A DNA stretch of 64,000 nucleotides from an uncultured Poribacteria bacterium (GCA_958296135.2 CATQHZ020000001.1:1856001-1920000), one strand, 5' to 3'. Numbered from the stretch's first letter, positions 1-49,675 are shown. Numbers and translations are program-made. The notes: generated by a model from the letters alone, not told the origin.

Positions 1-287
1 CCGCTAAACGCGTTATAGGTGATGAGGCCGTTAAATCGCTGCTCGCGCGTTACGCCAACGTGGATTGCATCGATGTAACCCAACCCTGCGGCATTGTAGT
101 TCGCGGCGTTGCTATCGTCGGCGAGTGCGACGAATGCCCCACCGAGCCCCAGCGGCCGCGCGCCCACGCCGATGTCGTTAAACGCCGCGAAACTGTTGCT
201 GCACAGCATCAGCGTGAAAAAAACGAGCGCGATTTTTTTGTATGTCGCAATGCGTTCGGACAGCTGTGACTGTGCCAAAATGTTCAT
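1..287 (-). CDS. PorV/PorQ (UPF0164)-like outer-membrane beta-barrel protein, 5' part (runs off the window)
   Basis: Manual translation from ATG 287: MNILAQSQ...signal-like IALVFFTLMLCSNSFA then GVGARPLGLGGAFVALADDSNAANYNAAGL, typical of the PorV/FadL-type barrel N-terminus. Not in the ORF track. Confidence 0.7.
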   Translation of the reverse strand, partial: MNILAQSQLSERIATYKKIALVFFTLMLCSNSFAAFNDIGVGARPLGLGGAFVALADDSNAANYNAAGLGYIDAIHVGVTREQRFNGLITYNAFS

Positions 288-465
288 TTTCCCAGGTCGC
301 CTTGACGTTGTCAAGCCTTGCGTGTCAGAGAGAGTGTGTTTCAGCGTCATATTATTATTTTAGGAGAGGCGAGTGATGCTCGCGACACCCTTGGTGCTCC
401 TTACTTTCGCAGAAGAAGTTCGGCCGGCGCTGTTTGCAACCGCGCTCCGATGTTGTTTCGCGCGC

Positions 466-1107
466 CTACGAAGCGCGCTTACCCCCAAACCCCGTCATTG
501 GCACGAAATTGACAGCGGTAACCCTCGTCGTATCTGTCTCTCCCGCTATTTTCTGAATCAAAAGCAGGTGTTGCGCCGTATCGCCGACAGGAATAACCAT
601 GCTTCCACCTTCGTCCAATTGATGAACGAGGCGTTGCGGGACTTTTTTCGGTGCCGCTGCAACAAGGACAGCATCGTAGGGCGCGTTTTCGTGCCAACCG
701 AAATGCCCATCCCCGCGTTTGAAATGGATATTCTGATAGTTGAGTGCCAGTAGCCGCTCTCTCGCGCTTTCGGCAAGTTCAGGCAGAATCTCAACGGAGT
801 AGACTTCGCCCGCCAATTCCGCCAAAACGGCGGTTTGGTAGCCGCACCCCGTTCCAATTTCAAGCACTTTTGACTCTGGCGTTAGCGCAAGCAACTCCGT
901 CATCAATGCCACGATGTAAGGCTGCGAGATTGTCTGCCGACACGCAATCGGCAGGGGACTGTCCTGATACGCCAAGTTGACGTATTCCGGCTTGACGAAG
1001 AGGTGACGTTTCACCTTGCGCATGACAGCAAGCACCTGCGGGTTGCGGATATCGCGCTTCTCAAGTTGGTTTTGAACCATTTCGCGCTGGAGGGTTGAAT
1101 AGTCCAT
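466..1107 (-). CDS. pcm: Protein-L-isoaspartate O-methyltransferase
   Basis: QTISQPYIVA, VLEIGTGCGYQTAVLA, APYD motifs. Confidence 0.95.
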   Translation of the reverse strand: MDYSTLQREMVQNQLEKRDIRNPQVLAVMRKVKRHLFVKPEYVNLAYQDSPLPIACRQTISQPYIVALMTELLALTPESKVLEIGTGCGYQTAVLAELAGEVYSVEILPELAESARERLLALNYQNIHFKRGDGHFGWHENAPYDAVLVAAAPKKVPQRLVHQLDEGGSMVIPVGDTAQHLLLIQKIAGETDTTRVTAVNFVPMTGFGGKRAS

Positions 1108-1119
1108 CGTGCTTACTCC

Positions 1120-3513: not shown

Positions 3514-3620
3514 AAACAGCACCAAGACAAAGCGTCAAAAGAGATACATATCTATTATACCACAAAACGGCGGAAATTGCAACAAAAATGCGACATTTTA
3601 CCAGAGTGATTCAGTTCTTC

Positions 3621-3722
3621 CCCTCTGTGTTGAGAGTGTTGTCGGCGCGCCCTCCCGGTCTCGATGTGTTTCTCCTCTGTGTTGAAGCACCGTAGGAGAG
3701 CCCTCCCGGTCTTGATGTGTTC
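3621..3722. repeat. Degenerate ~52-bp tandem duplication containing a REP-like unit
   Basis: cctctgtgttga...ccctcccggtctYgatgtgtt occurs twice; the second copy begins gtaggagagccctcccgg. Confidence 0.6.
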
Positions 3723-3762
3723 CATAGGAAGACGAATCAACTTACAGGGCGCGGCGGAGAAC

Positions 3763-6186
3763 TCAAAATTCCACTGTCAGCCCGAGATACGGGATGATGG
3801 GAAATTGCCTTGTCTCTTCCACGCTGCCATCGGCAGGATTTGTAAATCGCATGACATTTCGCCGATTATAGGCGTTCAAAATTTCCAGGAACCCGCCTAT
3901 CTTCCAACCGTCAAAATCCCATTTTTTGCTTATCCGCACGTCCAACCGGTGGTAGGGTGGCAGCTCAATTAACGCGTCATCTTCAGTTTCAAAGGGTAGT
4001 TGGCGCATCCCGCGCGTAACCTGATCTTGAATTAAGAAAATCTCGCTCACGGGGACACCGGACGTGCCGCTGGAATACTGCCACTTCGCCCCCACCTCAA
4101 ATGTCGGCGAGAAATTGTAACTCGCGACGACACTGACAACGTTCGTGTTATCAAAGAGGTAGGGGGCATACTCAGCATCAGGATGGGTGCGGCGTTCCGC
4201 ATGCGTCCAAGCATACGAAATCCAACCGAAAAATTTATCGGTAATACGGTGCCGCAGGAACATCTCCGCGCCACCGACATACCCCACACCCTGATTGAGA
4301 TACCCTTCTGCTTCATCCGGCGTTACCAAATTTGCCTGCGTTTTGTAATAGCCCGCCAACTTAAGTTCAGTTTGAGACGTGAGCTCCTGCTCCAATTCCA
4401 CGATGTAGTGGCTGGTGACGCTTGAGGTTAACGCCGGATTTCCGTCTTCGGCAAGCATTTGATACGGTTTTGGGCTTTGTTCATACCGTCCGTAAGCGAG
4501 ACGCAGGTCAGCACCGCTCGGCATTTTGAGTGCAAGACTGGCCCGCGGCTGCACCGAGATTTCGTCTGTCATGTTGAGGTAATCTAGCCGAACGCCTAGT
4601 GCCGCCGATAGAAACGGAAACGGCTCATATCGCGTTTGGAGGTAACCTTCGGCACGGCGGAACTGTTTGTTGAATTCTTCGCGAGTTTCCTCGGTCCGCG
4701 TCTCCTGCAAAAAAGTCCCCTCGCTGCCATCGGAATCGTTTCTATAGACAATTGCCTCGTCTCCATCCGCCTGAGCCTCTTCAAGCACTTCAGTCAGATC
4801 TTCACCTTCTGTCACTTCCGTTGCCTCGGAGACTGGCAGATTGGTGTAAGAAAAGCTGGTCGCGGGGCTGATGGAAAAAAGAAACCCTGGTTCAAACTGA
4901 AGCGTCGGTGTGATTTTGTATGACACGTCTTCGCGCAGCATGTAAACGGGAACGTTCACTTGAATGTCATAGTGCGAATACTCAGTGGATGCCACTTCCC
5001 ACTCACCATCTGGGCCCTGTTCAAAACGTTCGCTTGTCAGCAAATCAAAGTCAACGTTGAGAAAATTGTGGGAACGCGTGAGAGAGAGGTGTGAGGTGAG
5101 TTTTTCCGTGAAATGTGAACGGAGATGTATCCCTTGTGCCTCAAACCCGTTTTTGAAATAGGCAGAAGAAGGTGAACTTTCAACGCCTTCAGGGCGCGTG
5201 TCTTCAATGTCTGGGCCATCGGCAATTTCAAATTCAAAATGATCGGTTGCACCAAAGGCGTTGAGCGTCAGATGATGCTTCTCCGCCAAATCGTGGGCAT
5301 ACTTGAATTGATAATCTGAAAAGTAGGGCAACACGTTATTTCCCTCTATGAACGGACCGATGACGAGGTCGAGGTAACTCCGCCGTCCTGCCACGTGCAC
5401 ATATCCGTTCTCGCCGATTTTCCCCTCCAGCAATCCCTCCGAATAGAGGATATTCAGGTTAAAGGTGCCGCTCAACGTCTCATCTTCCAGTCTATCTCGC
5501 GAACGGATGTCAATCACCGTTTGCGCATCCAACCCGAATTCCGCGCCGTAGCCGCCAGCGTAGATGTGGATGTCGTCAATAATTTCCGAGCTGATAGTTG
5601 AGACAATCCCGCCGTAGTGGAACGGATAGCCCATCGGTGTCCGGTCGAAATAGATGAGATTGTCTCCGGGCGCGCTCCCACGGATATAGAGCGTGCCGAA
5701 GAAATCGTTCGGAATACCGATGCTCGGCAGCGTCATGAGGCCTTTGAGCGCATCGCCGCCGGTGCCGGGGAGGCGGAGCAATTCACTGCCACGAATCTCC
5801 TGACGACTGACAGTAGGAGGCACGCGCTCGCCTTCGACGATAACCTTCTCAAGTTCAAAGATTTCGCCGAGGTAGATTTTCACCTGCGTCGTATCACCTG
5901 CACGCACCTCAAGTTTGCTTTCCAGTGCAGTGCTATAGGCGGGATGCGAGACAGATAGCGTGTAGGTGCCCGGTGCAACCCCGATAAACCAAAACGTCCC
6001 ATCTGCCGCGGTGGTTTGGTGTTCGTCGGTTTCAAGCAGATGCACATCGGCATCGGCTAACGGTGCCCCGGTAATCTGTTCGACAATGGTGCCCTGAATC
6101 GTCCCAGTTGCAGCCGGTTCCGATTGGGCGAAGGCGGCTACTGGCAAGGTGAACACCAGCAGCAGCGAGAGAAAACGTTTTTTCAT
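3763..6186 (-). CDS. TonB-dependent receptor with an N-terminal carboxypeptidase-regulatory-like domain
   Basis: Signal peptide, GTIQGTI..., plug LYIRGS...N..YFD, C-terminal YHRLDVR...NAYNRRN...GLTVEF ending in Phe. Confidence 0.9.
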   Translation of the reverse strand: MKKRFLSLLLVFTLPVAAFAQSEPAATGTIQGTIVEQITGAPLADADVHLLETDEHQTTAADGTFWFIGVAPGTYTLSVSHPAYSTALESKLEVRAGDTTQVKIYLGEIFELEKVIVEGERVPPTVSRQEIRGSELLRLPGTGGDALKGLMTLPSIGIPNDFFGTLYIRGSAPGDNLIYFDRTPMGYPFHYGGIVSTISSEIIDDIHIYAGGYGAEFGLDAQTVIDIRSRDRLEDETLSGTFNLNILYSEGLLEGKIGENGYVHVAGRRSYLDLVIGPFIEGNNVLPYFSDYQFKYAHDLAEKHHLTLNAFGATDHFEFEIADGPDIEDTRPEGVESSPSSAYFKNGFEAQGIHLRSHFTEKLTSHLSLTRSHNFLNVDFDLLTSERFEQGPDGEWEVASTEYSHYDIQVNVPVYMLREDVSYKITPTLQFEPGFLFSISPATSFSYTNLPVSEATEVTEGEDLTEVLEEAQADGDEAIVYRNDSDGSEGTFLQETRTEETREEFNKQFRRAEGYLQTRYEPFPFLSAALGVRLDYLNMTDEISVQPRASLALKMPSGADLRLAYGRYEQSPKPYQMLAEDGNPALTSSVTSHYIVELEQELTSQTELKLAGYYKTQANLVTPDEAEGYLNQGVGYVGGAEMFLRHRITDKFFGWISYAWTHAERRTHPDAEYAPYLFDNTNVVSVVASYNFSPTFEVGAKWQYSSGTSGVPVSEIFLIQDQVTRGMRQLPFETEDDALIELPPYHRLDVRISKKWDFDGWKIGGFLEILNAYNRRNVMRFTNPADGSVEETRQFPIIPYLGLTVEF

Positions 6187-6245
6187 AAGGAGCACTCCTT
6201 TGGTGCGTAGAAAGCCGCATCTGCTCCAGTTACGGCGGTTGCGCG

Positions 6246-6656
6246 CTATCCGGATATCTCATACACGACAATCTGAGATGTTTCATAAGTTCCATCGGAT
6301 ACCGTGACAGTGATTGTAGACTTCGCAGGAAACTGCGCGGGCGCAGTAAACACGACTCGCAGTCCGGTTGTGGTGTCGATGCTGCCATCACCACTCAGCA
6401 TCCATTCGTAAGTGAGCGGATCGTTGTCTGCATCAATGGCGGTTACCTCAAGCGTATAAGTCTCGCCGGGTGAAATCCGATCAGGTGCCGTGAAATTGGT
6501 GATTTCCGGCGGCTCGCCAACTAACGTACGACAACCTAAAATCACCGCCAAGACAGCAACCCACCCGAGACAGTATAATACCAAATTAACCTGAGTCGTT
6601 CGGGTCAACTTAATTTGGTATAACTTGTGCCCTGTCAGCATTTTCTTAAAATTCAT
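6246..6656 (-). CDS. Probable lipoprotein with an Ig-like/PKD domain
   Basis: RBS CAGGAGG before ATG 6656; hydrophobic stretch ending ILGC; A.DADNDPLTYEW and ITVTVSDG motifs. Confidence 0.7.
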   Translation of the reverse strand: MNFKKMLTGHKLYQIKLTRTTQVNLVLYCLGWVAVLAVILGCRTLVGEPPEITNFTAPDRISPGETYTLEVTAIDADNDPLTYEWMLSGDGSIDTTTGLRVVFTAPAQFPAKSTITVTVSDGTYETSQIVVYEISG

Positions 6657-6766
6657 ACGTTCCTCCTGAGAAAAACGGGTTAAAGGATGGTGTTCGCGAA
6701 CCTCCGCAGTACCTGCCATACCCGAACTGCGGGTAGGGGCGTGGAAAGGCATATGCCCACACGTAG

Positions 6767-7582
6767 TTAAGAACGCCGTGCATACTGCGGAAACAGCTCA
6801 TCATGAATATCGCTACATTGCCGGAGGTGAATCCACCGCGCCTTGTCGGCAGTGTCAACCATAGTTGGGAAGAACATGCCTGCGCCGGTTTCGATTTGAT
6901 ACCCGCCAGCCGAATGGACGCTCAAATACTGATGCAGTGTCTCTAAATCCGGCTCCGTAGTGCAATGCTGCGTGCAATTCATCGTGAACATCCGCCGGCG
7001 CGTGCCGCCGCCAAACGCGGCATGGTACGTATCATGATTGAATATCATGACATCACCAGGGGTGCTCTCCAACGCGATGCTAGTGGGGAAATCACGAGGC
7101 GGAATGCCAAAGAGTGCTGCCGACTGATTCGGATCGAGTTTCTGGGCGCGCACGAAGTGCGCGGGGTTCTGGCTGCCCGGAATGATGCGCAAACACCCCG
7201 TGGCGCGCGTCAGCGGCTCGAGGTAAAACGCGACTTTACACGCGAAGAGGCGGCCCCAGTTTCCATCAGGATGCCAACCTGTATCGCCGGTGTAGTAGTT
7301 TCCATCGCCGCCTGCGTAGTTAAAATCCGCGCCGAGCACCCCGCCGATGAGCCCTTTGAGGCGTTCATCATCCAGCAGCGTGCAGAGCCGGGGGCGATGC
7401 TCAATCGGACCGCCGAACATCGTGCGGTGTGTGCCATCATGCGCTTTACCACCCCCGAATTCCTGAATGGAGCACTCAAACTCTTCCGTGATCCATTCTA
7501 TCTCGCTCGGAGAAAACATCCCCGGTATCGCGAGATAGCCGAAAGTGTTAAAGAAATTGATTTGGTGTTCGGTCAGTTTCAT
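6767..7582 (-). CDS. PhyH-family Fe(II)/2-oxoglutarate dioxygenase
   Basis: FFNTFGYLAI, WHPDG, GCLRIIPGS, PGDVMIF..TYHA..RR. Confidence 0.9.
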   Translation of the reverse strand: MKLTEHQINFFNTFGYLAIPGMFSPSEIEWITEEFECSIQEFGGGKAHDGTHRTMFGGPIEHRPRLCTLLDDERLKGLIGGVLGADFNYAGGDGNYYTGDTGWHPDGNWGRLFACKVAFYLEPLTRATGCLRIIPGSQNPAHFVRAQKLDPNQSAALFGIPPRDFPTSIALESTPGDVMIFNHDTYHAAFGGGTRRRMFTMNCTQHCTTEPDLETLHQYLSVHSAGGYQIETGAGMFFPTMVDTADKARWIHLRQCSDIHDELFPQYARRS

Positions 7583-7694
7583 GGTGCAACCTCCTGTGTT
7601 CCTATGAATCGTCTCGCGTCTGTAGGGAAACCTGCTCGCTCAAGCTTGACTTGTTCGGGGCGGGCAAGCCTGCACTCCAGAGGAAAATTGCGTA

Positions 7695-8264
7695 TTATTC
7701 AAAAAGTCGCAAGACCTCACAAGAAAAGCCCTTGACGACATCTTCTCCGGTGAGCCTATCTACGTCTGTGAGAAGTGTGAAGTCTTTGCCGGGGCGATAC
7801 ACCTCCACGGTTTTCAGCACCGGGTTAACCACCCAAACCAGCCGGGTGCCGGCCTCAAGATAAGCGAGGACTTTCTCCGAAACCCGCGCCTGTTTATCTG
7901 AAGGTGAGACTACCTCAACGGCCAGATCTGGCGGCACAGGAGAACCCTTGCTCCTGTCCTCCGGCAAACGCTCCATTGAGACAAAGGCGACATCTGGCAC
8001 CAGCACTTGGGTTCCCACCCGGAAACCTGTATCCGATGTGTAGACGCGTCCCAATTGATTTTCACGAACGTGCATGCCTAACGGCACGACAAGATTCGTG
8101 CTAATATCTCCATGTTCCATTGAGGTAGGCGACATTTGCACGACTTCTCCTTTCAGGTATTCATACCCTTCCAAGCCGCTTTCAAGAAATTCCTCCAGCG
8201 TCATCGTGATGTGTGCGGGAGGCGGCATTTCTTGCGCGAACGGGTGAAGTTCGGGTGAATTCAT
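7695..8264 (-). CDS. Uma2-family (DUF820) putative endonuclease
   Basis: YEYLKGEV..MSP...HG, PDVAFVS, PPDLAVEVVSPSD, YLEAGTRLVWVVNP. Confidence 0.92.
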   Translation of the reverse strand: MNSPELHPFAQEMPPPAHITMTLEEFLESGLEGYEYLKGEVVQMSPTSMEHGDISTNLVVPLGMHVRENQLGRVYTSDTGFRVGTQVLVPDVAFVSMERLPEDRSKGSPVPPDLAVEVVSPSDKQARVSEKVLAYLEAGTRLVWVVNPVLKTVEVYRPGKDFTLLTDVDRLTGEDVVKGFSCEVLRLFE

Positions 8265-8353
8265 CCTTTCGTTCCTCCTGAAGATAGCGACAGCGTTGCT
8301 GAGTTGTTTTTTTGCGCGCCCTTCCCAAAGTCAGCGCGAACCGCTATAAATAT

Positions 8354-8383
8354 ATTATACACGCAATTTATCAGGTGTGTCAA
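8354..8383 (-). promoter_or_regulatory. sigma70-type promoter for the Uma2 gene
   Basis: TTGACA-N18-TATAAT on the minus strand. Confidence 0.75.
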
Positions 8384-8444
8384 CTCTTTTTTGAACGCGT
8401 AGATGAAAACACAAAACGGAAAAGTAAGTTGTTCTGAAAAAAGG

Positions 8445-8473
8445 TTGACATAAATTAGAATTTTCGGTAAAAT
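8445..8473 (+). promoter_or_regulatory. sigma70-type promoter for mod1
   Basis: TTGACA-N17-TAAAAT. Confidence 0.75.
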
Positions 8474-8574
8474 ATGAGTGTTGTAGTAACGAAATTTCAG
8501 CGAACGTTTCGCACAGCGCGTGAACCGCCGCAACCGAAAAGCGGCATCCGGAACGCGCACGTCAGGAAATCACT

Positions 8575-10544
8575 ATGCCAACAAGAACATTCAACGAGAA
8601 ACTCATTGAACGCCTCAAAACTGACGCGCGCTTCGTTGACAACGCTGGCGAACTCATCCCTGCCGCTGTCAAAGACCGCGCCTGGCACCTCGACCCGGGC
8701 CTCCTCACGCTGTTAATGACAGATAAGGAGATTGAGGCACAGTTCTTTGACGAAATTAACGGAAGATGGGTGTTCAATTACAACACCTTCATTACCTACC
8801 TCTCCGATAAAAACTTCCTCGCCAACGCATACACCCGATTCCGAAACAAAATTGGCTTGAACATTGACGACAAGTTTCTGCCTGAACGCAGCGAAGTCGC
8901 ACTCGTCTGGCCCTACAAAGACTGCGTCTTGGAAGGTGGACAGACGCGCCAAGAGGAAAAACGCACCGAGATATTTTTCAACGAACTCCTCGCGCCTGAT
9001 GAGATTAACCGGCTCCTCGCGCCAAAGGTGTTCACACAGTGGAAACGGCACACGCATGCAGGTGCACACCCGATATCTGCCATCAAACGTGGTGAAGATG
9101 GCACGATTCGCGAGAACTTGCTCATCAAGGGGAACAATCTGTTGGCACTGCACTCCCTGAAGTTGCAGTTCCGCGGCAAGGTGAAATGTGTCTACATCGA
9201 TCCGCCCTATAACACCGGCGGCGCAGCGGACAGTTTTACCTATAACAACACCTTTAATCACTCCACGTGGCTCACCTTCATGAGAAATAGATTAGAGGTG
9301 GCGAAGGACTTGCTCCGGCCCGATGGGTTCATCGCTATCGCGATCGACCACCACGAGCTCTTTTATCTCGGTGTGTTGGCCGACGAAGTCTTCGGACGCG
9401 CGAATAGGTTAGCGACAGTTTCGGTGGTTCACCAGGCTCGGGGCCGGAATATGGATAAAGGGTTTTCGACAAGCAACGAATTCATGCTGGTTTACGCCAA
9501 GACCCGCGGAAACAACATCAAAAACGTTGTTATCGACGAAGAAAAGAAAAAGCAGTTCAACCTGAGCGATGAGAAAGGTAACTATTATCTGAAAAATTAC
9601 ATCATGGTCCAAGGGGGGAGCCGGGGATGCACGAGGCAAGATAAGCCTGCATACTGGTATCCTATCTACGTTAGCGAAGACTTAACCGCTGTCTCGTTGG
9701 AAAAAGTGGATGGCTATGAAGAGGTTTTGCCCATAACGAATACGGGGCGGGAAATGACCTGGGTAACGAAACCTGAAACCTTTCTAAAACGGTTTAGCAA
9801 CAATGAAGTTGTCATCAAGAGGGAGAACGGTAAAATCGTCATTTGTAGGAAATTTCGGGAGCAGCAAATAATTCCAACGCATTGGATAGCCCGGAAATAT
9901 AACGCGACCTCTCACGGCACAATGTTGCTAGAAAAAATTATCGGCAAAAGAGGCGTTAGTTATCCCAAATCCCTCTATACCGTCATGGACATCCTGAAAC
10001 TCACGACAGATACCGGCGACATCATCGTGGACTTCTTCGCCGGCTCCGGCACGACAGGACACGCAGTCGTTGAACTTAACAAACGTGAATGGGGGGGGGC
10101 GAAAGGCAGTTTATCCTCGTCGAGCAGTTGGAAGAGCATGTCGCCATCTGCCAAGAGCGGCTTGAAAAGGTTCTTGCGCAAGAGGGGCTTGTCAGCACCG
10201 ACTTCCTCGCCTGTGAACTGATGCCCTACAATGCCGTTTTTGTGGCGCGCATCCAAGCGGCGCGCACGAGCAACGAATTGGTGCAAATCTGGCGTGAGAT
10301 GGCAACGGAGTCGTTCCTCAATTGGTATGTCAATCCTGAGGTTCCTGAAGATGCGGTGGCGGATTTCATCGCTATCGGGGACGTAGCAAAGCAGCAGTCG
10401 CTGCTGATGGAGCTACTGGACAAGAATCAACTCTACGTCAACCTTTCAGAGATGGAGGATGAGGATTTTCAAGTCAGCAATGCGGATAAGGGGCTGAACC
10501 GCGAATTTTATGGAGACGAAGTCATCCCCAGTTTATCCTTGTAG
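8575..10544 (+). CDS. mod: Type III R-M Mod (N6-adenine DNA methyltransferase), frameshifted at a G9 tract (10091-10099); no adjacent res gene
   Basis: NLLIKGNNL, YIDPPYNTG, YPKS, DFFAGSGTTGHAV; the expected continuation ERQFILVEQ is in the 10089-10544 frame; one extra G joins the two ORFs. Confidence 0.9.
10091..10099 (+). repeat. G9 homopolymer, candidate phase-variation switch (OFF as assembled)
   Basis: gaat-ggggggggg-cgaaagg lies exactly at the frame junction. Confidence 0.85.
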
Positions 10545-41455: not shown

Positions 41456-42400
41456 CTACAGGACATCAACGGCAAATCCGATAATTGCCGCCGCAATGTT
41501 GATACCGGTGACAGATTCAAGTTCCTCAAACCCCGGCGATGGGTTCACCTCTAGGATAACCGGTCCACCCGCCGTTTGGAGCAGGTCTACACCGGCGATG
41601 TCCAATTCCAACGCGGCGGTTGCGCGGACAGCGAGTGATCTTTCATTTTCGGAGAGGGTTACCGCTTCGCCTGATGCGCCTCGGTGGATATTTGCGCGGA
41701 ATTCGCCGGGCGGCGCGCTCCGCTTCATTGCAGCGATAACTTCGCCTCCCACCACGAGGATGCGGATATCAACGCTTCCCGTATTCAACTGTAAGGGCGG
41801 ATGTCTATATCCGCCCGCGTCCGAAATAAAAGGTTGAATTATATAATCTTGATGCAGTTCACACAGGGCATCCACCGCCGAAGTGAGGGAAGTCTGCGTA
41901 TCTAGCAACATAACGCCGCTGCCGTGCGTGCCGTAGAACGGCTTTAAAATAAACGGGTAGTCGCCGAGCTCGGCGACAGCCTCATCCAAAAACTCGGCGG
42001 CACCGACGGTGAGACTCGGCGGCACCGGCAATCCGTGTTGCGCGAGGATGCGCAAGGAACGGAACTTATGGCGCGCGGTAGCTATCGCTTGTGCGCGATT
42101 CATCACCGGGGTGCCGAGCCATTCAAAATGCGCGATGACTTCTTGTCCGTATGCCGCCGTTGAGCTGCTGATGCGCGGAATGACGACATCAATATCTTCT
42201 ACCGACGCGCCTTCATAAGTCAGGCTATTGCCGCTGCCGCATTTTGCAGTAGGCGCGCTTTGCGAGCGCGCCCCACCGATGCGGAGATAGAATCCAAACG
42301 GATCAAGAATGTGGGCAGTATGTCCGGCATTTTCGGCGGCTTCATAGAGACTTCGCGTGGAATAATTTTGGGAGCCCCGTGAGAGAATAGCGATTTTCAT
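41456..42400 (-). CDS. rimK: RimK-family ATP-grasp ligase
   Basis: MKIAILSR..YST, IPRI, GTHGSGV, DIRILVVGG, EFRANIHRG, GVDLL, LEVNPSPG. Confidence 0.85.
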   Translation of the reverse strand: MKIAILSRGSQNYSTRSLYEAAENAGHTAHILDPFGFYLRIGGARSQSAPTAKCGSGNSLTYEGASVEDIDVVIPRISSSTAAYGQEVIAHFEWLGTPVMNRAQAIATARHKFRSLRILAQHGLPVPPSLTVGAAEFLDEAVAELGDYPFILKPFYGTHGSGVMLLDTQTSLTSAVDALCELHQDYIIQPFISDAGGYRHPPLQLNTGSVDIRILVVGGEVIAAMKRSAPPGEFRANIHRGASGEAVTLSENERSLAVRATAALELDIAGVDLLQTAGGPVILEVNPSPGFEELESVTGINIAAAIIGFAVDVL

Positions 42401-42512
42401 TTTTTGTCTGACTTTCGGCAAGGATTTCTCTTACATCACGTTCTTCTGCGTTTCGGTTGCAACTTTGGGGTTCAAGGGTTGATTGATTTTTCGCAGTTCG
42501 GCAGCAGCAACA

Positions 42513-43934
42513 CTACCCGAACGCAGTTTTAAGCTGTCCCAGCTGTCCCACTGCTTCTATCGCATCCTCAATCTCTTTTCTAGGGACGTTCGCGATAGTT
42601 GCATGGCTGAGCGGATTCAGAATACGACTCCGATACAATTCAATCTCGCTAATGAGCGATTGGGTTAAAAAGGCAGACTTCTGATTTTCAACTTTTATCG
42701 CATCCCAGAAATCCTGACTGTCCAATTTATTCGGTTCGCTGCGGTACCTGACCGGGATACGCTTTTTATCGCAGCATCTCTTGATTGCCTCCTCAAAAGC
42801 GGTACGCAGGTAAATTGCACACGCTTTGTAGTCGTTCAAGGTGAGAAATTCCCTCGCTTTGTCAAGATACGCTTTATCTGCCACGTAGATAGGGATTTCG
42901 TATTCATCGGTTTTCGAGAAATAGAATTCGGCGTATTTCCAATCTTTTTCTGATGTCCGTTGCTTGACAACCTCATACCATACCTTATCGTAGGTGGTTA
43001 GAAAGATTTGGTGATTCGGGAAATACGCCGCCAGAATGTCAAGCACCGGCAGCCGATTTGACATATCCAAGCCGATAAGCACATCGTCCAACGCGAGCAC
43101 CTTCAAGTCGCTCTCTGGCTGAAGGAGAATTGCCGCAAAATAGATAGCGAGAGAAATCGCCGACAACTTCGCCTCATTGAGGAAAAGGTGATGTGCCGGT
43201 ATTTCCCTGTCCAAGAATTCTACCGTTAAGAGGAGCTGCTGGTTATCTAGCGTCTTGGCTTCCCGGTTGTAGGTGATGCCTTCAAACGTGAGGTTGAGGG
43301 TAACGTCGTATCCGAACTTGCGGAGGATTTCGGATGCGAGCGTTTGTAGTTCTTCTACTTTATTCGTGAGTCCCCTATTGAAACGCTCTATTTGTTCATC
43401 TAATTCCGCAATCCGTGCTGCCGCGTTTCGGCGTGGACGAGGCGCGCTTTGGAGGGCCATCCATTCACCTCCAAGGGCTTGCGCGGTTACCTGATTAATA
43501 GTGTTAGCAAGAAGACTCTCCACTAGCAATTTGAAGAGATTCACATTGTCTGATTTGCTATGGAGAAAGTGGGTTTCCAGCAGCACCTTATAGTCAAGGC
43601 AGCCTTTGGATTTTGAAGCCGCAAGAATTAGCGGATTATCTGTCTCGTTCCTAACAGTCTGCGACCACTCATAGATGGCCTCATTTGCTTTCGGATCCTC
43701 GCGCAGATGAAGTTTGATGTAGCCATCATCGGCGTTGAAGATGTTCCGGTGCCTTTCAAATGGCGACCTTTCCTCACTAGACTCCAAGAACAATTTCAAC
43801 GCGAGATACAGCGACGATTTGCCGCTTCCGTTCTCACCGTAGACGAGGAGATTCTTACCAGCCTTATGCAAGTCAATCTGGTAGGTGCCGTAGAAAGCTC
43901 TGAAGTTTTTGAGCTCGATTCCGGTAATTCTCAT
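42513..43934 (-). CDS. ABC/SMC-type ATPase with a C-terminal HEPN-like domain (RloC/PrrC-like architecture)
   Basis: NFRAF, Walker A GENGSGKS, FLNEAK signature-like, Walker B LALDDV..LD; C-terminal LRTAFEE and R-ILNPLS-H. Confidence 0.8.
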   Translation of the reverse strand: MRITGIELKNFRAFYGTYQIDLHKAGKNLLVYGENGSGKSSLYLALKLFLESSEERSPFERHRNIFNADDGYIKLHLREDPKANEAIYEWSQTVRNETDNPLILAASKSKGCLDYKVLLETHFLHSKSDNVNLFKLLVESLLANTINQVTAQALGGEWMALQSAPRPRRNAAARIAELDEQIERFNRGLTNKVEELQTLASEILRKFGYDVTLNLTFEGITYNREAKTLDNQQLLLTVEFLDREIPAHHLFLNEAKLSAISLAIYFAAILLQPESDLKVLALDDVLIGLDMSNRLPVLDILAAYFPNHQIFLTTYDKVWYEVVKQRTSEKDWKYAEFYFSKTDEYEIPIYVADKAYLDKAREFLTLNDYKACAIYLRTAFEEAIKRCCDKKRIPVRYRSEPNKLDSQDFWDAIKVENQKSAFLTQSLISEIELYRSRILNPLSHATIANVPRKEIEDAIEAVGQLGQLKTAFG

Positions 43935-45868
43935 CGTTGCTTACTCTCAATGATGCGGATCGGTTTCAAAGTATCTAAAAAGAAATGGTTTTTCCGAACC
44001 GGATGATGTTTGTCAAACAGATGCTCAAAGATTTCGCGGATAGCAGGCACTTTATCATCGCCCGGAATCTCCTCAAGTTGCGGAAGACACTCATCAAACA
44101 GCGGCTGGAAGAAGTATTTATCCCCCTGATGGAGTTCATCGGGCAGATAGAGCTCATAAACCAGCCCATCAAGGATATGCCCAAAATACGCTACCATCAC
44201 GTAGTCGCGAGCGTTGGTTAACTCAGACCCGTCTGTCGTCGGCAACTTCTTAAGATAGAGGATGTATTCAACCAACTTGTGGAGGAGCGATCTCTGCGCC
44301 GAATCCATATCCGGAATCGGAATTTGCGCGACGGACCGGGGCGAAAACGTTAAAAATGAATCCTTCCGCTTCTGTGGTGTCGTTCGCGCGTGAAACCATG
44401 AAACCGCTCGCGTATTAAGCACACCGAGGATCCACAAATCTTGTGTAGGTAGAACAAACGAAGGGCTTCCGACATAGTAGCCTTCGTCATCAAAAGCAAA
44501 CGCCGTTTCGCTCGCCATGTACGGATAAACACATTTCGGCCGCTCAAAGCGAACGGGATCCCTAGCGGACTCTAGGAGTTCGTACCATTCCCGCCGACCG
44601 ATTCTCTCTTGCAGCACATCCTTGTATTCTTCCAAGTGCTTCTTAATCGCCGGGTAAGCATTGAGCTCTATTCCCCGATGGGTGAAAATGAGCCACCTAT
44701 TGCTTGGCTTCACGCGCCAACGTTTAATATCACGCATACCTAGAAACGGCTTCAAAATATCGGCAGATGATGGATGCGCTGCAATCAACGCATCCCGTGT
44801 GGCCGGGTCTATGATAAATGCTTTGTTCAACCCGGTTATAATACCGCTAGACCGTCCCTGAACGTATTCACCCAATGGTTTGCCAGCACAACGAAACTTC
44901 TCCAACAGTTGCAAGACCGCGTGGGTGTTCCGCAATTCGCCATCAGGAGTTAAAATCTTCTGCGTCGTAGTAAGACTGTTTACCGGATATTGCCTCAACA
45001 TTGCAACAATGTCTTCCGGCACCTTGAGCCCGTTCCGATTCTCAAACATTGAAACGCTTCTATAGGTGTTATGAAAAGCCGCGGTAATATCCATGCCCAA
45101 GTTCTTGGCGGCTGTCAAGTCTGCTCTAGCTTTATCCCATTCCCGCAGACTTAACCAGCCTTCACCGCGATTGTAAAAGGCATGGGCAAACTCCGGTTTT
45201 AGTTTTATCGCCATCGTCCAGTCTTCAATAGCGCGCGGCGAAATTGCTGTTTTCGCGTGGGCCATACCACGATTGTAATAAGCCTCGGCATACCACGGCT
45301 TGAGGTGAATTGCATCAGAGTAGGCTTCAACCGCCTTGTCCAATTGTCCGAATGTCATCAAAACGTTGCCGCGTTGGAACGCTAATTCGGCGTGTAATTC
45401 TTTTTCAGACATCTCGGACGGCGGATTCGCCTGAGATTGCATTGCGGTAACCGTGCTTTGGATGCGTTCCACTACATTTTTCCACCCACGACTTTCAGGT
45501 TTCCACGCGCGAATCGGTTTGCCTTTGTCAGGGAGAACCGGGAAGTCACTGAGTGGATGACGGAGCCAGTCACATTCCTCAATGATAATGGGAATGACGC
45601 GCATATTTGCGTTTAATGCCGCTGCCAACTCCTCGTTGCAATTTTCCGAAGCCAAGCTAGCAGCGGAGGTCAAGTAGAGCAGCAGGTTCAGCTTCGCGAG
45701 GCTGCTGAAAATAGCGTCGCGCCATTTGTCGCCGGCAGCGATTTCGGTATCGTGCCAGAGGCTTATCAAACCCTCGCGCTCTAGGGCAGCAAGGTGCGCT
45801 ATCAATTTATCCTTTGCCGCGGTATCTTTATGCGAGTAGGTGATGAAGATCTTTACCGGCTTGCTCAC
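43931..45868 (-). CDS. TIR domain + TPR repeats + Type IIG/TaqI-C-like target-recognition domain fusion
   Basis: IFITYSHKD..WHDTEI.AG..W..ASENCNEEL (TIR); AYYNRG, AFYNRG (TPR); GKPLGEY..GIITGLNKAFIID..KPFL..RDIKRW..WYEL..LGVLNT..IPIP..IDGLVYELY-like segment (TaqI_C-like). Confidence 0.8.
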   Translation of the reverse strand: MSKPVKIFITYSHKDTAAKDKLIAHLAALEREGLISLWHDTEIAAGDKWRDAIFSSLAKLNLLLYLTSAASLASENCNEELAAALNANMRVIPIIIEECDWLRHPLSDFPVLPDKGKPIRAWKPESRGWKNVVERIQSTVTAMQSQANPPSEMSEKELHAELAFQRGNVLMTFGQLDKAVEAYSDAIHLKPWYAEAYYNRGMAHAKTAISPRAIEDWTMAIKLKPEFAHAFYNRGEGWLSLREWDKARADLTAAKNLGMDITAAFHNTYRSVSMFENRNGLKVPEDIVAMLRQYPVNSLTTTQKILTPDGELRNTHAVLQLLEKFRCAGKPLGEYVQGRSSGIITGLNKAFIIDPATRDALIAAHPSSADILKPFLGMRDIKRWRVKPSNRWLIFTHRGIELNAYPAIKKHLEEYKDVLQERIGRREWYELLESARDPVRFERPKCVYPYMASETAFAFDDEGYYVGSPSFVLPTQDLWILGVLNTRAVSWFHARTTPQKRKDSFLTFSPRSVAQIPIPDMDSAQRSLLHKLVEYILYLKKLPTTDGSELTNARDYVMVAYFGHILDGLVYELYLPDELHQGDKYFFQPLFDECLPQLEEIPGDDKVPAIREIFEHLFDKHHPVRKNHFFLDTLKPIRIIESKQR

Positions 45869-45907
45869 GACTTTTCCTCCGCTGGGGTGCTAATTTGCGT
45901 TGGAGGC

Positions 45908-45936
45908 ATGATAACCTATTCGCGCAGAAATGTCAA
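45908..45936 (-). promoter_or_regulatory. sigma70-type promoter of the TIR-ATPase operon
   Basis: TTGACA-N17-TATCAT; RBS GGAGG before GTG 45868. Confidence 0.65.
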
Positions 45937-46040
45937 CAAGAATTCACGGCGGCGATAAACATAACGCTACGGTTCAAGATAGGCAAGCACTTGCAGGATA
46001 AAACTCGCTGCTTATTCTCCGTTTCATGATAGCATCCATA

Positions 46041-46838
46041 TTAAGCTGAAGCGGCCTGATACATCTCCCGCATTACTATCAGGATATCCCGCGGCGCACC
46101 GAAAGTATCAGTGAGATAGCGTTTTTCTGCCTGCGTTCTGATGTCTTCGGGGATGCCATGCAGTGCCTCGGCGATAGGACCGGCGATGGCGGCGAGGGTA
46201 TCCGAATCGCCACCGAGAGAGATGGCGTTACGCACCGCATCCTCAAAACTCACGGATGCCAGCGCGCACGTGATTGCCGGTGGTACCGAGCCCTGGCAAG
46301 TCACGTCAAACTTGTACCAGGGTCGGATTTCGTCCACTGTCTGGGACAAGTCGTAGTCATATTTGGAGGTGATAGCCTCGCGGATGCTATCTACATTTTC
46401 GCCCTGATACGCGAGCCAAATCGCATGAGTTGTCGCTCGTGCGCCCTTTATGCCTTCCGGATGATTGTGCGTAATCGCAGTCACCTTGTCGGAGGCGGCA
46501 AGGGCTGCATCCAGATTATCGCGGTTGAGGAACGCCGCAGGCGAGACGCGCATGGCAGCACCGTTTCCGAAACTGTCATAAGGCTCAGGCACATCGCGAT
46601 AAATCCACTTCCCAAACATGCCGCCGTAGCCGCCCCGCGGATGACAGCGGCACCACTTCTGCATCGTCGCCGCGGGCGGGAGTTCGTGTAGCAGTATATC
46701 CGCTACCGCTGCTGTGCAAATCGAATCGTCCGTGAACCGGCAGTCTGTGCCAAAGAAAGGAAAATCCTTGGTTTTGATCTGATGCCTGCGTCTCTCATAT
46801 ATTGAGCCGACAATGTCGCCGATAATCGCGCCTATCAC
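46041..46838 (-). CDS. ADP-ribosylglycohydrolase (DraG/ARH family)
   Basis: GAIIGDIVGS, FTDDS, SFGNGAAMRVSP, THNHPEG, GGDSDT; RBS GGAGG before GTG 46838. Confidence 0.92.
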   Translation of the reverse strand: MIGAIIGDIVGSIYERRRHQIKTKDFPFFGTDCRFTDDSICTAAVADILLHELPPAATMQKWCRCHPRGGYGGMFGKWIYRDVPEPYDSFGNGAAMRVSPAAFLNRDNLDAALAASDKVTAITHNHPEGIKGARATTHAIWLAYQGENVDSIREAITSKYDYDLSQTVDEIRPWYKFDVTCQGSVPPAITCALASVSFEDAVRNAISLGGDSDTLAAIAGPIAEALHGIPEDIRTQAEKRYLTDTFGAPRDILIVMREMYQAASA

Positions 46839-46970
46839 GTTTCCTCCGCCGCCGTGGATGCCTCCGTTACGAGGCTCTAGCGGATTTTGTCCCAAAGACA
46901 AGAACGTTTGGGAATTTCGTAGGCGCGGTGTGCACCCGCGCCTACGGGGTTCCTCCTGCACAAGTCAGGA

Positions 46971-48629
46971 TTAGACCTCGGAATAAACCCAGATTTGGAG
47001 TGCCTTCTCGGCGAGTTCCTCTGCCCTTTCTCGGATAGTCTCTTCGTCCCACTTCTCCGCTCGGGCAAGGCTACGATTCAAGCGCAACGGGCTATCGCGA
47101 AATCCGTCTTTCATATACTGCTTCTCGCGGAAGGAGCGATTGCCCAACTTTGAATTGGAACCCGTAAAGGTGAGGTTCCCGATCGTGTGGAGGTACTTCT
47201 CCTGCGTTTCTCGGAAGTTTCCGCCAAGTTCAGCTTCCCATGCCTCAGACAGTGTTTGCGGCATCACGTGCTCGGTTGAGTACTCCGAAACGTTAACGGG
47301 TTCTCTACGTTCATAGTTTTCCAATTTGCGCAGCAGATACTCGCGCCTGTCAAAATTATAGACATCTTTAACCATCAATTCCCGCCGGAACTCGGAGTTG
47401 GCTGGATAACGTCTGTAGGCGGACATTCTCAAGAAAGCGGCCTTCACACTTTGAAGGTAATTGCTTTTGTCAATTTCCTTCGTCAGTCCCGCGAAGGTCT
47501 TATTCAAACTGTTCGTTGGAATACCACAGATAGCGCGCCGGAAGACGTAACTCTCCACCAACCGAAGAATCTCAATCAGTTCGGATTTTTCGATACGGCA
47601 TTGCGTCCAATCCTCATAGACTCCAAGTAAGAACGGAAACGCTACTTCAACGCCAAGGTCCAGAATATCCGCAAAACAATCTCGGATTTCCTGATCTTCT
47701 TCTTGAAGCAAAGCAATACGAACATAGTGCCTTGAATAGCGCGCAATTGCCGCAACCGCTTCTAACGCGTCCTGAGATTCTATGCTAGGAACATGCACTT
47801 TGAAACTCTCGTAAACGCTGCGAATGTTTGGGATCTTCCCTGTCATTAACGTGAGATAGTCTCTTATGAACCGGTCAAACCGCTTGGAGTATGCGTCCCC
47901 AAAACGTTGCTCCATAGGAAACCAATACTCTTCGTAAAGCATCTTCTGGAGATCGGTATCCTGGCCCATAAGCACGTAGTTGCGTATGAGATCCGCTTGC
48001 GATAGGCTGAGTCCAGTGGAATTGAGGCTCTCAAAGATCAGTTGCGGATTATCATGTCCACGCTCTAGCGCGATGTCCACAATCATTAACTTTTTAATGC
48101 CCTCGTATACTACGCCAAGTTCAGCTCTTTCAAGCTTGACTTTAAAAAAGGCGTAGTTCTCCACCAAGCGATGTGAAGCATCTGCGGGTTCTCTACGCTC
48201 CAACAACTGGATCAGCGTATCCTTGTCATGGCGCGTTAACAGTTGTTTGTAGCGCAGTTCGTCCTCTTCATCGGCGTTAAAAAGATAATAATTTGAGAGT
48301 TGTCTGGGACTTATGCCAATGTCACTACGCTTTTCTTCAATTGCTTTACCGAGTCCCAAAAGCAAAAGAGATAGGGTAGTTAACCGTTGTTGCCCATCAA
48401 TAACCAGAAATTCTGGCACCGTTGAAATGTTCCCAACCCCCGGTTGCATGTAGACGATTGAACCGAGAAAATGAGACGTAATCCCCGGATTTGCTCCGAT
48501 GCGCATGATGTCATCCCACAGCCGTTGGCAGTGCTTCTTTTCCCAACTATATCTGCGTTGAAAGATGGGAACAAGAAACTGCTTCGGTCCTTGAAGGAAT
48601 CGCAAAAAACTTGTTTCGTTTGCTTTCAT
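46971..48629 (-). CDS. gmrSD: GmrSD-type (DUF262-DUF1524) modification-dependent restriction endonuclease
   Basis: VPIFQRRYSW, IDGQQRLTT, IFESLNSTG, EHVMPQ..HTIGNLT..N. Confidence 0.9.
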   Translation of the reverse strand: MKANETSFLRFLQGPKQFLVPIFQRRYSWEKKHCQRLWDDIMRIGANPGITSHFLGSIVYMQPGVGNISTVPEFLVIDGQQRLTTLSLLLLGLGKAIEEKRSDIGISPRQLSNYYLFNADEEDELRYKQLLTRHDKDTLIQLLERREPADASHRLVENYAFFKVKLERAELGVVYEGIKKLMIVDIALERGHDNPQLIFESLNSTGLSLSQADLIRNYVLMGQDTDLQKMLYEEYWFPMEQRFGDAYSKRFDRFIRDYLTLMTGKIPNIRSVYESFKVHVPSIESQDALEAVAAIARYSRHYVRIALLQEEDQEIRDCFADILDLGVEVAFPFLLGVYEDWTQCRIEKSELIEILRLVESYVFRRAICGIPTNSLNKTFAGLTKEIDKSNYLQSVKAAFLRMSAYRRYPANSEFRRELMVKDVYNFDRREYLLRKLENYERREPVNVSEYSTEHVMPQTLSEAWEAELGGNFRETQEKYLHTIGNLTFTGSNSKLGNRSFREKQYMKDGFRDSPLRLNRSLARAEKWDEETIRERAEELAEKALQIWVYSEV

Positions 48630-48683
48630 AATCCTCCCTCTATCGTTAGGATTTAGAGTTGAAATGCCTTCAACCCATAATAT

Positions 48684-48712
48684 ATTATACGATATGTCCA
48701 ATCGAAAGTCAA
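48684..48712 (-). promoter_or_regulatory. sigma70-type promoter for gmrSD
   Basis: TTGACT-N17-TATAAT. Confidence 0.65.
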
Positions 48713-48898
48713 ATTTATTTTCCCGCGGAGCAGGTTTGGGCTCGGTTGGAGCATAGCGAGGAAACCCTCGGCGATTAGTGCTCGCCGGGCCCTCGTCCTA
48801 CGGTAGGAGACGTAGTCGATTGGGAAATAAAAAAGCGTTGCATTTTTATGCAAATTCGGTTAACCTATATAAAATAGCACAGAACGATGGAGGACACC

Positions 48899-49675
48899 AT
48901 GGAATACTTAGCATACGGAAAAACGGGTTTGGAAATATCGCGGCTCTGCCTCGGCGCGGGGCATCTCAACCATACCTGCGACAGTTACGCATCCGGTGGT
49001 GCACTGATGCTGAAAGCACTTGACGAAGGCATCACCTTTTGGGATACCGCCGAAGGATATGGCACGCAGCCGCATCTCGGTGAGGCAGTGCAGCAGATTC
49101 GCCGGGAAGAAGTTGTCATCCAAACGAAGACAGGCGCGAAAGATTACGACGGTGCCGCGCAAAGCATCGCGCGTTCCCTTCGCGAACTGAAAACCGAGTA
49201 TCTGGATGTCCTGCTGTTGCATGGTATCGCCACGCCGGAAGACTTAGCATCGCGAGAAGGCGCGCTTGAGGCGTTCCGCGATGCCAAAACGGCTGGCAAA
49301 ATCCGGATTATCGGGTGTTCCACGCACATTTACACCGGCCCTGTCATGGATGCAGTTATCGCGCATCCGGAACTTGATGTCATCCTCACTACTGCGAATA
49401 AGGAGGGGCGGATGTTAGAAGGTGGGCCGTTTGCACAGCATCTAGACTACATCCAGCGTGCCTACGACGCGGGGAAAGGCATAAGCATCATGAAGGTTAT
49501 CGTCGCGGGCGATATTCCGGAGGCGGATATGCCGGAATGGATCGAGTGGGGTTTCAACCTTGAGACAGCACACGCGATCAACCTCGGCATTACCGATTAC
49601 CGGCATATCACGCTGGATGTCGGGCTCGCCCGCGCCAGCGCAAGGCGGCGTTTGACGCAGCGCAAGGCGGCATAG
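48899..49675 (+). CDS. Aldo/keto reductase
   Basis: GKTGLEISRLCLG, FWDTAEGYG, SLRELKTEYLDVLLLH. Confidence 0.92.
   Translation: MEYLAYGKTGLEISRLCLGAGHLNHTCDSYASGGALMLKALDEGITFWDTAEGYGTQPHLGEAVQQIRREEVVIQTKTGAKDYDGAAQSIARSLRELKTEYLDVLLLHGIATPEDLASREGALEAFRDAKTAGKIRIIGCSTHIYTGPVMDAVIAHPELDVILTTANKEGRMLEGGPFAQHLDYIQRAYDAGKGISIMKVIVAGDIPEADMPEWIEWGFNLETAHAINLGITDYRHITLDVGLARASARRRLTQRKAA

Follow-up and report, generated by a model that had tools for sequence, protein, structure and literature searches.

A 64,000-nt stretch of the genome of an uncultured Poribacteria bacterium (GCA_958296135.2, CATQHZ020000001.1:1856001-1920000), called here the window and numbered from its first letter, carries a pair of genes which we consider, with a probability of about 0.55, to be a self-contained conflict module of the abortive-infection type derived from a Type IIG restriction-modification (R-M) system. 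Gene 1 encodes a protein in which a TIR domain and a few TPRs are joined to the target recognition domain (TRD) of a restriction enzyme and to a C-terminal module, residues 546-645, that we term Ctail; gene 2 encodes an ABC ATPase with a C-terminal domain tentatively assigned to the HEPN fold (Table 1). The sequence-only reading of this DNA had described a two-gene unit with a 4-nt overlap, and the two open reading frames (ORFs) indeed share the ATGA at 43931-43934; the junctions of related loci are equally tight. That reading had also failed to recognise the architecture from described systems, and it was not found in PADLOC or in the literature, although it proved to be a derived variant and not a system without known relatives. 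Its building blocks and its working principle are of known kinds, and three things are new as variants of them: the TIR-TRD fusion, the proposed adaptor role of Ctail and the inferred step from restriction enzyme to TIR protein.

The N-terminal part of the gene 1 protein matches Pfam TIR_2 (residues 7-103, 53.9 bits against a cut-off of 28, 3.3e-14) and the PADLOC model of ThsB (residues 6-147, 4.8e-27); when the TIR domain was compared with PDB sequences by phmmer no significant match was obtained (best E 0.38). The glutamate pointed out earlier in SENCNEEL is E80, which is kept, together with S74, C77, N78 and L81, in 35 of 35 aligned homologues, and the pattern CxxE[LIM] occurs in 117 of the 120 best homologues. 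The best score on ThsB and the catalytic-type Glu are shared with Thoeris; unlike in Thoeris, the TIR domain is fused to TPRs and a TRD, the partner is an ABC-HEPN protein, and no ThsA (SIR2, transmembrane, Macro, SLOG) was found beside gene 1 in a scan of the immediate neighbours.

The TPR array is the variable part of the protein. Among the 120 best homologues TIR and TRD stand between 151 and 633 residues apart, and the distance grows by about 34 residues at a time, corresponding to 3 to about 17 TPRs; the window protein falls in the shortest class (spacer 151-157, 7 of the 120). An N-terminal effector followed by a TPR array of variable length is the arrangement of TPR-bearing STAND/Avs-type NTPases that carry TIR or other effectors. 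Gene 1 resembles those TPR-sensor conflict proteins in both features, and differs in having no STAND NTPase, the NTPase being a separate ABC protein, and in ending with a TRD.

This C-terminal portion comes from a restriction enzyme. Pfam TaqI_C matches residues 375-518 (40.4 bits against a cut-off of 26.5, 4e-10), the Type IIG models of PADLOC (REase_MTase_IIG) align by their TRD part only, with residues 300-545 (2e-23), and a profile made from the C-terminal 345 residues of gene 1 proteins from 28 genomes (A3) matches the TRD of M.BseCI (7qw5_A, residues 333-573, E 4.7e-16). At E<=0.01 Pfam detects no methylase (Eco57I/N6_Mtase) in gene 1, nor does it detect any nuclease family, the N-terminus being occupied by TIR and TPR. 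Both the proposed order of domains (TIR, about three TPRs, TRD) and the proposed lack of methyltransferase and nuclease are thus borne out. In Type IIG enzymes (Eco57I, MmeI, Cj0031-like, with an HKD-SNF2 neighbour) the C-terminal third is homologous to the TRD and Ctail of gene 1, and the same ATPase gene follows; unlike them, gene 1 has neither methylase nor nuclease domain, and since these domains are missing its product is predicted to be unable to modify or cut DNA as Type IIG enzymes do.

The same ancestry is seen in the neighbourhoods of gene 2 relatives, for which we scanned the ORFs upstream of gene 2 homologues at 40 loci (Poribacteria-labelled and TIR-form loci excluded). The ORF directly upstream was an Eco57I methylase protein of 1150-1385 aa, mostly with TaqI_C, in 27 loci; the remaining ones were short TaqI_C-only ORFs (3), Z1-domain proteins (3), DEAD/ResIII proteins (2), Schlafen/AlbA_2 proteins (2), a Bro-N protein, a protein with GmrSD_N and HNH, and an ORF without match (1 each). 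A complete Eco57I-TaqI_C protein stood one gene further upstream in five loci (L064, L067, L074, L091 and L092), and altogether 35 of the 40 loci have an Eco57I or TaqI_C gene at most two genes upstream of the gene 2 homologue, in agreement with the R-M link that had been suspected from the window. The Type IIG gene is itself preceded at 21 loci by one for a Helicase_C/SNF2 protein, which scores best on the PADLOC model HKD+Snf2, ahead of DrmD and HmaA.

Other parental operons were considered and set aside. DISARM was rejected because its DrmD and DrmMI models scored weaker than HKD+Snf2 and REase_MTase_IIG, and Hma and MANTIS because their ATPases, according to PMC12839542 and 10.64898/2026.09.23.753747, are AAA+/DUF499 proteins and not ABC proteins. 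As for Mza, only some distant gene 2 relatives are embedded in such loci: the Z1 proteins before gene 2 homologues are MzaC, flanked by MzaB and MzaE, and in four Bacteroidota loci (L075, L082, L094 and L110) the gene 2 homologue lies between MzaC, a Z1 protein ending in Ctail, and MzaE (AIPR). The gene 2 homologue inside these loci matches no PADLOC Mza model, and MzaB, MzaC (Z1) and MzaE (AIPR), present at L075, are absent from the six genes between 40153 and 48701 in the window.

Two features had gone unremarked in the sequence-only reading: Ctail as a separate module, and the presence of ABC-HEPN proteins in R-M operons as an established theme, for which we refer to sections of Anantharaman et al. 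2013 (PMC3710099). When the pieces of gene 1 were compared with the ORFs upstream of full-length gene 2 homologues, Ctail was the most widespread, being found in 50 of 69 loci against 40 for the TRD. It forms the C-terminus of Type IIG enzymes and also of Z1 proteins (L082, L094, L110) preceding gene 2 homologues, and 21 Ctails taken from Type IIG, Z1 and TIR proteins share the motifs YFE-IIDALVYELY-P-EL and F-RLYD--HPVR--LF-LDS---VRIIEG. No Pfam family was assigned to Ctail in gene 1 and no consistent family among the 21; a lead from the Atlas (score 0.93) identifying it as Pfam MmeI_C was discarded, as 0 of the 21 match that family. Across the 176 genomes of the phylum there are 124 Ctail matches in 89 genomes, with a gene 2 match within 100 nt after 107 of them and within 1500 nt after 2 more, and the window's genome has no Ctail match at E<=1e-5 besides that of gene 1. 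Ctail would therefore be a module that goes with the ATPase, most simply its docking site.

One further locus deserves description here. In a Latescibacteria-labelled metagenome-assembled genome (MAG), five genes on one strand (L046, locus coordinates 13-9213) encode in order a Helicase_C protein, a 1306-aa Type IIG enzyme with Ctail, a gene 2 homologue, a 403-aa TIR_2 protein and a PDDEXK_3 nuclease. Compared with the window, its Ctail is 64%, its TRD 31% and its ATPase 61% identical, and the row looks like an unfused counterpart of the window unit.

The pair is conserved well beyond the window. A homologue search with gene 1 scored 8000 candidates, 1104 of them at E<=0.001, and TIR, TRD and Ctail occur together in 119 of the 120 best, the remaining one having no Ctail match. 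Of 29 loci compared in other genomes of the phylum, 28 have a gene 2 homologue immediately after the TPR-TRD-Ctail frame, and the lone exception is cut by a contig end; the fusion is thus not a one-off. Gene 2 matches were found in 88 of the 176 genomes (71 of 133 of good quality), which belong to 3 of 11 families; a single genome has as many as 5 matched pieces when complete copies and fragments are counted together, and the pair sits in differing genomic contexts. Such a patchy distribution would be expected of accessory genes.

The ratio of non-synonymous to synonymous substitution rates (dN/dS, NG86), calculated between the window and a same-genus homologue (L124, G066), was lowest in the ATPase (0.13), Ctail (0.14), the TRD (0.16) and the TPRs (0.21), and higher in the HEPN-fold domain (0.37) and the TIR domain (0.38). 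All six parts are under purifying selection, and the relaxed selection of the TRD that had been named as a sign against the proposed operon was not seen. The synonymous divergence (dS) within gene 1 differs about fourfold along the same comparison (TPRs 0.25, TIR 0.36, Ctail 0.68, TRD 0.96), which suggests a mosaic history by recombination.

These last values, along with the finding of Ctail on unrelated N-terminal bodies (Type IIG, Z1, TIR-TPR) just before the ATPase gene and the common occurrence of fragmented copies, could also speak for a mobile addiction cassette, in which the Ctail-coding 3' end and the ATPase-HEPN gene would graft together onto different genes, Ctail acting as antitoxin and HEPN as toxin in post-segregational killing, with defence as a side effect. 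We regard this as unlikely: a conserved TIR Glu and a TRD under purifying selection are not needed for an addiction module, and no repeats or recombinase came up at the window locus, although no search was aimed at either. It is in any case compatible with a conflict module and not exclusive of it.

The few gene 1 homologues that bear a source name, and related loci by their titles, belong to MAGs labelled Candidatus Poribacteria or Latescibacterota. Poribacteria include sponge symbionts rich in TPR and ankyrin proteins, and an ankyrin/CotH protein lies near one TIR-TPR locus, so that a eukaryote-like protein could be imagined whose TIR and TPRs manipulate TIR signalling of an animal host, the restriction-enzyme end being incidental. 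This seems to us very improbable, as the TIR domain matches the bacterial ThsB model, the protein continues into a TRD, and its gene is translationally coupled to that of an ATPase with relatives at R-M and Mza loci in free-living members of many bacterial phyla.

Gene 2 belongs to a much larger family, with 2722 representative clusters at E<=0.001 and 525 at 1e-30, and members in cyanobacteria, Acidobacteriota, Bacteroidota, Desulfobacterota, Planctomycetota, Agrobacterium, Shinella and others; the clusters of the Atlas label its relatives merely 'AAA family ATPase', and the clade may already be listed in existing surveys of ABC ATPases or HEPN proteins. Its N-terminal head is of the Rad50/SMC/RecF type: Pfam gives SMC_N (40.5 bits against a cut-off of 40) and also AAA_15 and AAA_23, a 40-sequence profile of the family matches Rad50 (3qku, E 5.2e-16), and Foldseek and VIA-align give matches to the heads of cohesin, Rad50 and RecF (Z 9.6-9.8). 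The Walker motifs noted earlier are confirmed by the alignment, G33, N35, G36, G38 and K39 of Walker A and D283 and D284 of Walker B being invariant in 40 diverse relatives (25-60% identity). The ABC ATPases of known defence systems (Septu PtuA, Lamassu LmuB, PARIS AriA, Gabija GajA, MADS mad3) match mostly the P-loop end of gene 2; the longest match, to mad3, covers residues 2-317 (E 4.3e-11) and leaves the C-terminal domain uncovered, and a Pfam scan of the neighbours shows no PtuB, LmuA, AriB or TOPRIM gene adjoining the pair.

The closest parallel to gene 2 is found in PrrC-EcoprrI and RloC, which have likewise an N-terminal Rad50/SbcC-like ABC NTPase, a C-terminal HEPN-fold domain (in gene 2 a soft assignment) and, for most gene 2 relatives, the linkage to R-M. 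The differences are also clear: gene 2 scores 19.9 bits on Pfam AAA_13 against a cut-off of 36, over residues 16-60 only, and the partners of its family are Type IIG, Z1 or TIR-TPR proteins and not Type Ic enzymes. PrrC uses an Arg-Glu-His triad, while gene 2 is without the canonical R-x4-6-H and has R377, E381, N440 and H444 invariant instead. According to PMC3710099, the Type Ic enzyme EcoprrI holds PrrC in an inactive state, from which inhibition of EcoprrI by phage T4 sets it free, so a second-line RNase held by a restriction enzyme is the logic already described for PrrC. In the same source, passages on ABC-HEPN proteins list groups such as ERFG_01251 and APECO1_4465, which pair an ABC ATPase with a classical HEPN domain, and report the DUF4145 HEPN domain fused to restriction endonucleases, helicases and 'TIR and ATPase', and in R-M operons; Eco57I has 0 occurrences in it. 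Our literature searches returned no description of a TIR-TPR-TaqI_C protein or of the gene 2 ATPase with Type IIG enzymes.

Several observations weigh against a working conflict module, beginning with the C-terminal domain of gene 2. With a structure model of mean predicted confidence (pLDDT) 67, VIA-align places residues 350-473 on 1ufb with Z 9.5 (107 residues, rmsd 2.9), on 2hsb with Z 9.2 and on 5yep_B, the HEPN toxin SO_3166, with Z 8.9, and further on 1wol, the HEPN domain of sacsin (3o10) and those of Csm6, but Z below about 13 is common for helical bundles and Z 9-10 is within the chance range. On Pfam DUF4145 the window protein reaches 13.8 bits, below the cut-off of 23.1; among 29 diverse C-terminal domains of the family, DUF4145 is found in 11 and HEPN in 7 at E<=0.1 (best about 3e-4), and a variant with a duplicated C-terminal domain (P0162) reaches 30.9 bits on DUF4145 (2.9e-7). 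The canonical HEPN R-x4-6-H motif is absent from the family alignment, and the R-x6-H read in gene 2 beforehand does not hold up, since its arginine, R437, varies; R435, 8 residues before H444, is invariant in close relatives only, and the invariant residues of the family are arranged as R377-x3-E381 and N440-x3-H444. Given the sub-threshold score, the chance-range Z and the missing motif, the assignment as a HEPN-fold domain with a non-canonical conserved site is a soft one. Moreover, Walker B has DD in place of DE, and the alignment shows no evident H-loop histidine, so ATP hydrolysis by gene 2 protein may be slow or absent.

The connection between Ctail and ATPase has its own weak points. 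Among non-TIR loci ATPase identity goes with Ctail identity (Spearman rho 0.61, n=40) and not with TRD identity (rho -0.14, n=30), figures that are descriptive only, the loci being related to each other and not phylogenetically independent. Fifteen of the 124 Ctail matches in the phylum have no adjoining gene 2 match (G085:C26:104446-104730, G100:C1:3149860-3150144 and 13 other places); several of these are ORFs of about 580 aa, one match lies 1.7 kb downstream of a complete pair in G100, and some or all may be orphans or copies in decay. A DNA cassette transferred as a whole could, in place of protein contact, account for both the Ctail-ATPase counts and the co-variation. Finally, an AlphaFold2 model of the TRD and tail (A3, 28 sequences) had a pLDDT of 48.6 and was not used for fold search, no model of PADLOC 2.0.0 spans the whole of either protein, so that no tested defence system would vouch for the pair, and neither protein reached a curated cut-off of NCBIfam.

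TIR genes are also found in the company of complete Type IIG enzymes, including in the window's own genome (G000), which encodes at least three of these (1202, 1220 and 1681 aa), none adjoining a gene 2 homologue. Two loci combine a Type IIG gene with a TIR_2-TPR gene behind it: a 1202-aa enzyme and a 398-aa TIR_2-TPR protein (L121, G000:C1:984000-997000), and a 1220-aa enzyme, then 256 aa, then a 454-aa TPR protein (L122, G000:C1:2984000-2997000), the latter enzyme being preceded by an AAA_21 ABC ATPase and a DUF4276 protein. The TIR of the L121 type shares 32% identity with the gene 1 domain and was detected in 52 of 176 genomes; 29 of its loci were sampled, and a Type IIG-like C-terminus stands directly upstream in 9. 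Three genomes (G034, G042 and G048) have this second type at the head of a TPR-TRD-Ctail protein that is followed by gene 2, which argues that the N-terminal TIR is exchanged between forms.

It could be proposed from this company that gene 1 protein is an alternative or extra subunit joining a Type IIG enzyme encoded elsewhere, to which it would bring TIR and ATPase-HEPN, so that the pair would not be autonomous. Besides the standalone TIR-TPR genes and the complete enzymes of the genome, such a trans-acting role is favoured by G034 and G042, where the whole unit stands directly after a Type IIG-like C-terminus (L134, L139). We think it doubtful all the same, because the nearest genes in the window are GmrSD, ADP-ribosylglycohydrolase and RimK and not Type IIG, the TRD of gene 1 is only 32-37% identical to the TRDs at the Type IIG loci of the same genome, and the contexts of the pair vary. 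For most loci of the phylum, the search for a nearby Type IIG gene extended over flanks of 1.5 kb.

Two more loci of the window's genome were recorded. At L123 (G000:C1:2153000-2169000) the 1681-aa Eco57I-TaqI_C Type IIG enzyme is followed by four same-strand ORFs (452-501 aa); all four resemble the TRD region of gene 1, at 32-37% identity, and have no Pfam match at 1e-5; no recombinase was seen beside them, and they may be a set of alternative specificity modules. At L125 (G000:C1:1134000-1144000, ORF 4041-5780, minus strand) a 579-aa standalone TIR_2 protein with about ten TPRs has a TIR domain 53% identical to that of gene 1, and neither a Type IIG gene nor a gene 2 homologue adjoins it.

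Taking the pair as a conflict module derived from a Type IIG system, its history and action might be as follows. The parental system would have consisted of an Eco57I-like enzyme (nuclease/methylase, TRD, Ctail) and, after it, the ABC-ATPase-HEPN protein, often with an HKD-SNF2 helicase first; in the lineage of the window, TIR and a TPR array of variable length would have replaced the catalytic N-terminal two thirds, while TRD and Ctail were retained. The gene 2 family would be a PrrC-like partner for Type IIG and Mza systems, attached through Ctail. In the complex, the ATPase-HEPN protein would be docked on Ctail, and the TRD together with the Rad50-like head would tether the whole to DNA until a phage cue flips the ATPase. 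The cue could be a phage protein bound to the TPRs, whose number varies, or an anti-restriction protein that takes the TRD or Ctail as decoy; it could also be abnormal DNA, with the TRD or the Rad50-like ATPase as its sensor. The HEPN-fold RNase would then be released and the TIR domains would hydrolyse NAD+ or make a signal, and growth would stop before the phage completes its cycle.

A bolder version makes the decoy the origin of the protein: a TIR-TPR protein that once guarded a neighbouring Type IIG enzyme would have captured its TRD-Ctail end as catalytically dead bait, and phage anti-restriction proteins directed at Type IIG enzymes, on binding it, would trigger both NAD+ destruction by TIR and the ABC-HEPN RNase on Ctail. 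We hold it to be tentative and rather improbable; if true, it would provide a prokaryotic counterpart of the integrated decoys of plant TIR-NLR receptors, and Ctail would be a portable adaptor by which a single RNase guard is connected to systems of three kinds, Type IIG, Mza and TIR.

Of the features around the pair, the promoter had been claimed earlier. A sigma-70-like TTGACA-17-TATCAT is indeed present at 45936-45908, but the scan of the region gave 2 sites against 4.4 expected from shuffles, a count not above chance, and position is the one thing that argues for this candidate. No terminator-like site was found on the pair's own strand 3' of gene 2 by a sequence scan of the region. The G+C content is 48-50% over 42001-46000, with 55-58% on both sides and 46-49% over 47001-49000, and the low-G+C stretch around the pair would fit an acquired islet.

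The neighbouring genes do not travel with the pair. RimK and glycosyltransferase genes lie downstream of it (Pfam scan), and the ADP-ribosylglycohydrolase (ARH) gene directly upstream of the TIR gene is suggestive, yet its linkage is limited to a same-genus genome, the only one in which the synteny of the window around the pair is kept. ARH, GmrSD, RimK and GT4 were all rejected as members of the unit, as none stands beside the pair in 80 loci (L041-L120); two weak GmrSD matches among these loci are both at unrelated positions. A 189-aa ORF found downstream in three relatives was also rejected, being a conserved housekeeping-like neighbour located elsewhere in the window's genome.

Table 1. 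Features of the two-gene unit and its upstream neighbours, in window positions.
Feature	Position	Strand	Basis
Gene 1, TIR-TPR-TRD-Ctail protein, 645 aa	43931..45868	minus	GTG start, ORF listing
TIR domain, residues 7-147, catalytic-type Glu E80	45428..45850	minus	Pfam, PADLOC, alignment
About 3 TPR repeats, residues 160-261	45086..45391	minus	Pfam TPR models over 160-255
TaqI_C-type TRD, residues ~300-545	44234..44971	minus	Pfam, PADLOC, profile A3
Ctail, residues 546-645, helical module, proposed ATPase adaptor	43934..44233	minus	sequence comparison
Gene 2, ABC ATPase and HEPN-fold protein, 473 aa	42513..43934	minus	ATG start, ORF listing
Rad50/SMC/RecF-type ABC ATPase head, residues 1-340	42915..43934	minus	Pfam, profile, fold
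HEPN-fold C-terminal domain (soft assignment), residues 350-473	42516..42887	minus	VIA-align, sub-threshold Pfam matches
ATGA stop/start overlap of gene 1 and gene 2	43931..43934	minus	ORF coordinates
Sigma-70-like promoter candidate TTGACA-17-TATCAT	45908..45936	minus	11/12 matches, ~40 nt 5' of GTG start
GGAGGA ribosome-binding site 5' of gene 1 GTG	45875..45880	minus	read from sequence
ADP-ribosylglycohydrolase (ARH)	46041-46961	minus	Pfam 4e-37; directly upstream of TIR gene
GmrSD-family Type IV restriction enzyme (GmrSD_N and GmrSD_C)	46971-48701	minus	PADLOC Orf5 5.7e-176

Having no full-length model in PADLOC 2.0.0, this large family will be missed by annotation pipelines, and its TPR arrays, changing in length by steps of one repeat, offer a natural series for the study of how such arrays are tuned. 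If the proposed reading is true, a restriction enzyme could be converted into an abortive-infection device by exchanging its catalytic body for TIR and TPRs while its DNA-recognition end is kept, and a tail of about 100 aa would be a portable adaptor that brings one ABC-HEPN family to at least three kinds of DNA-targeting protein (Type IIG, Mza Z1 and TIR-TPR-TRD). The wiring of second-line RNases to first-line restriction has been proposed beyond PrrC from gene neighbourhoods only (PMC3710099), and the pair described here would give a concrete handle on it.

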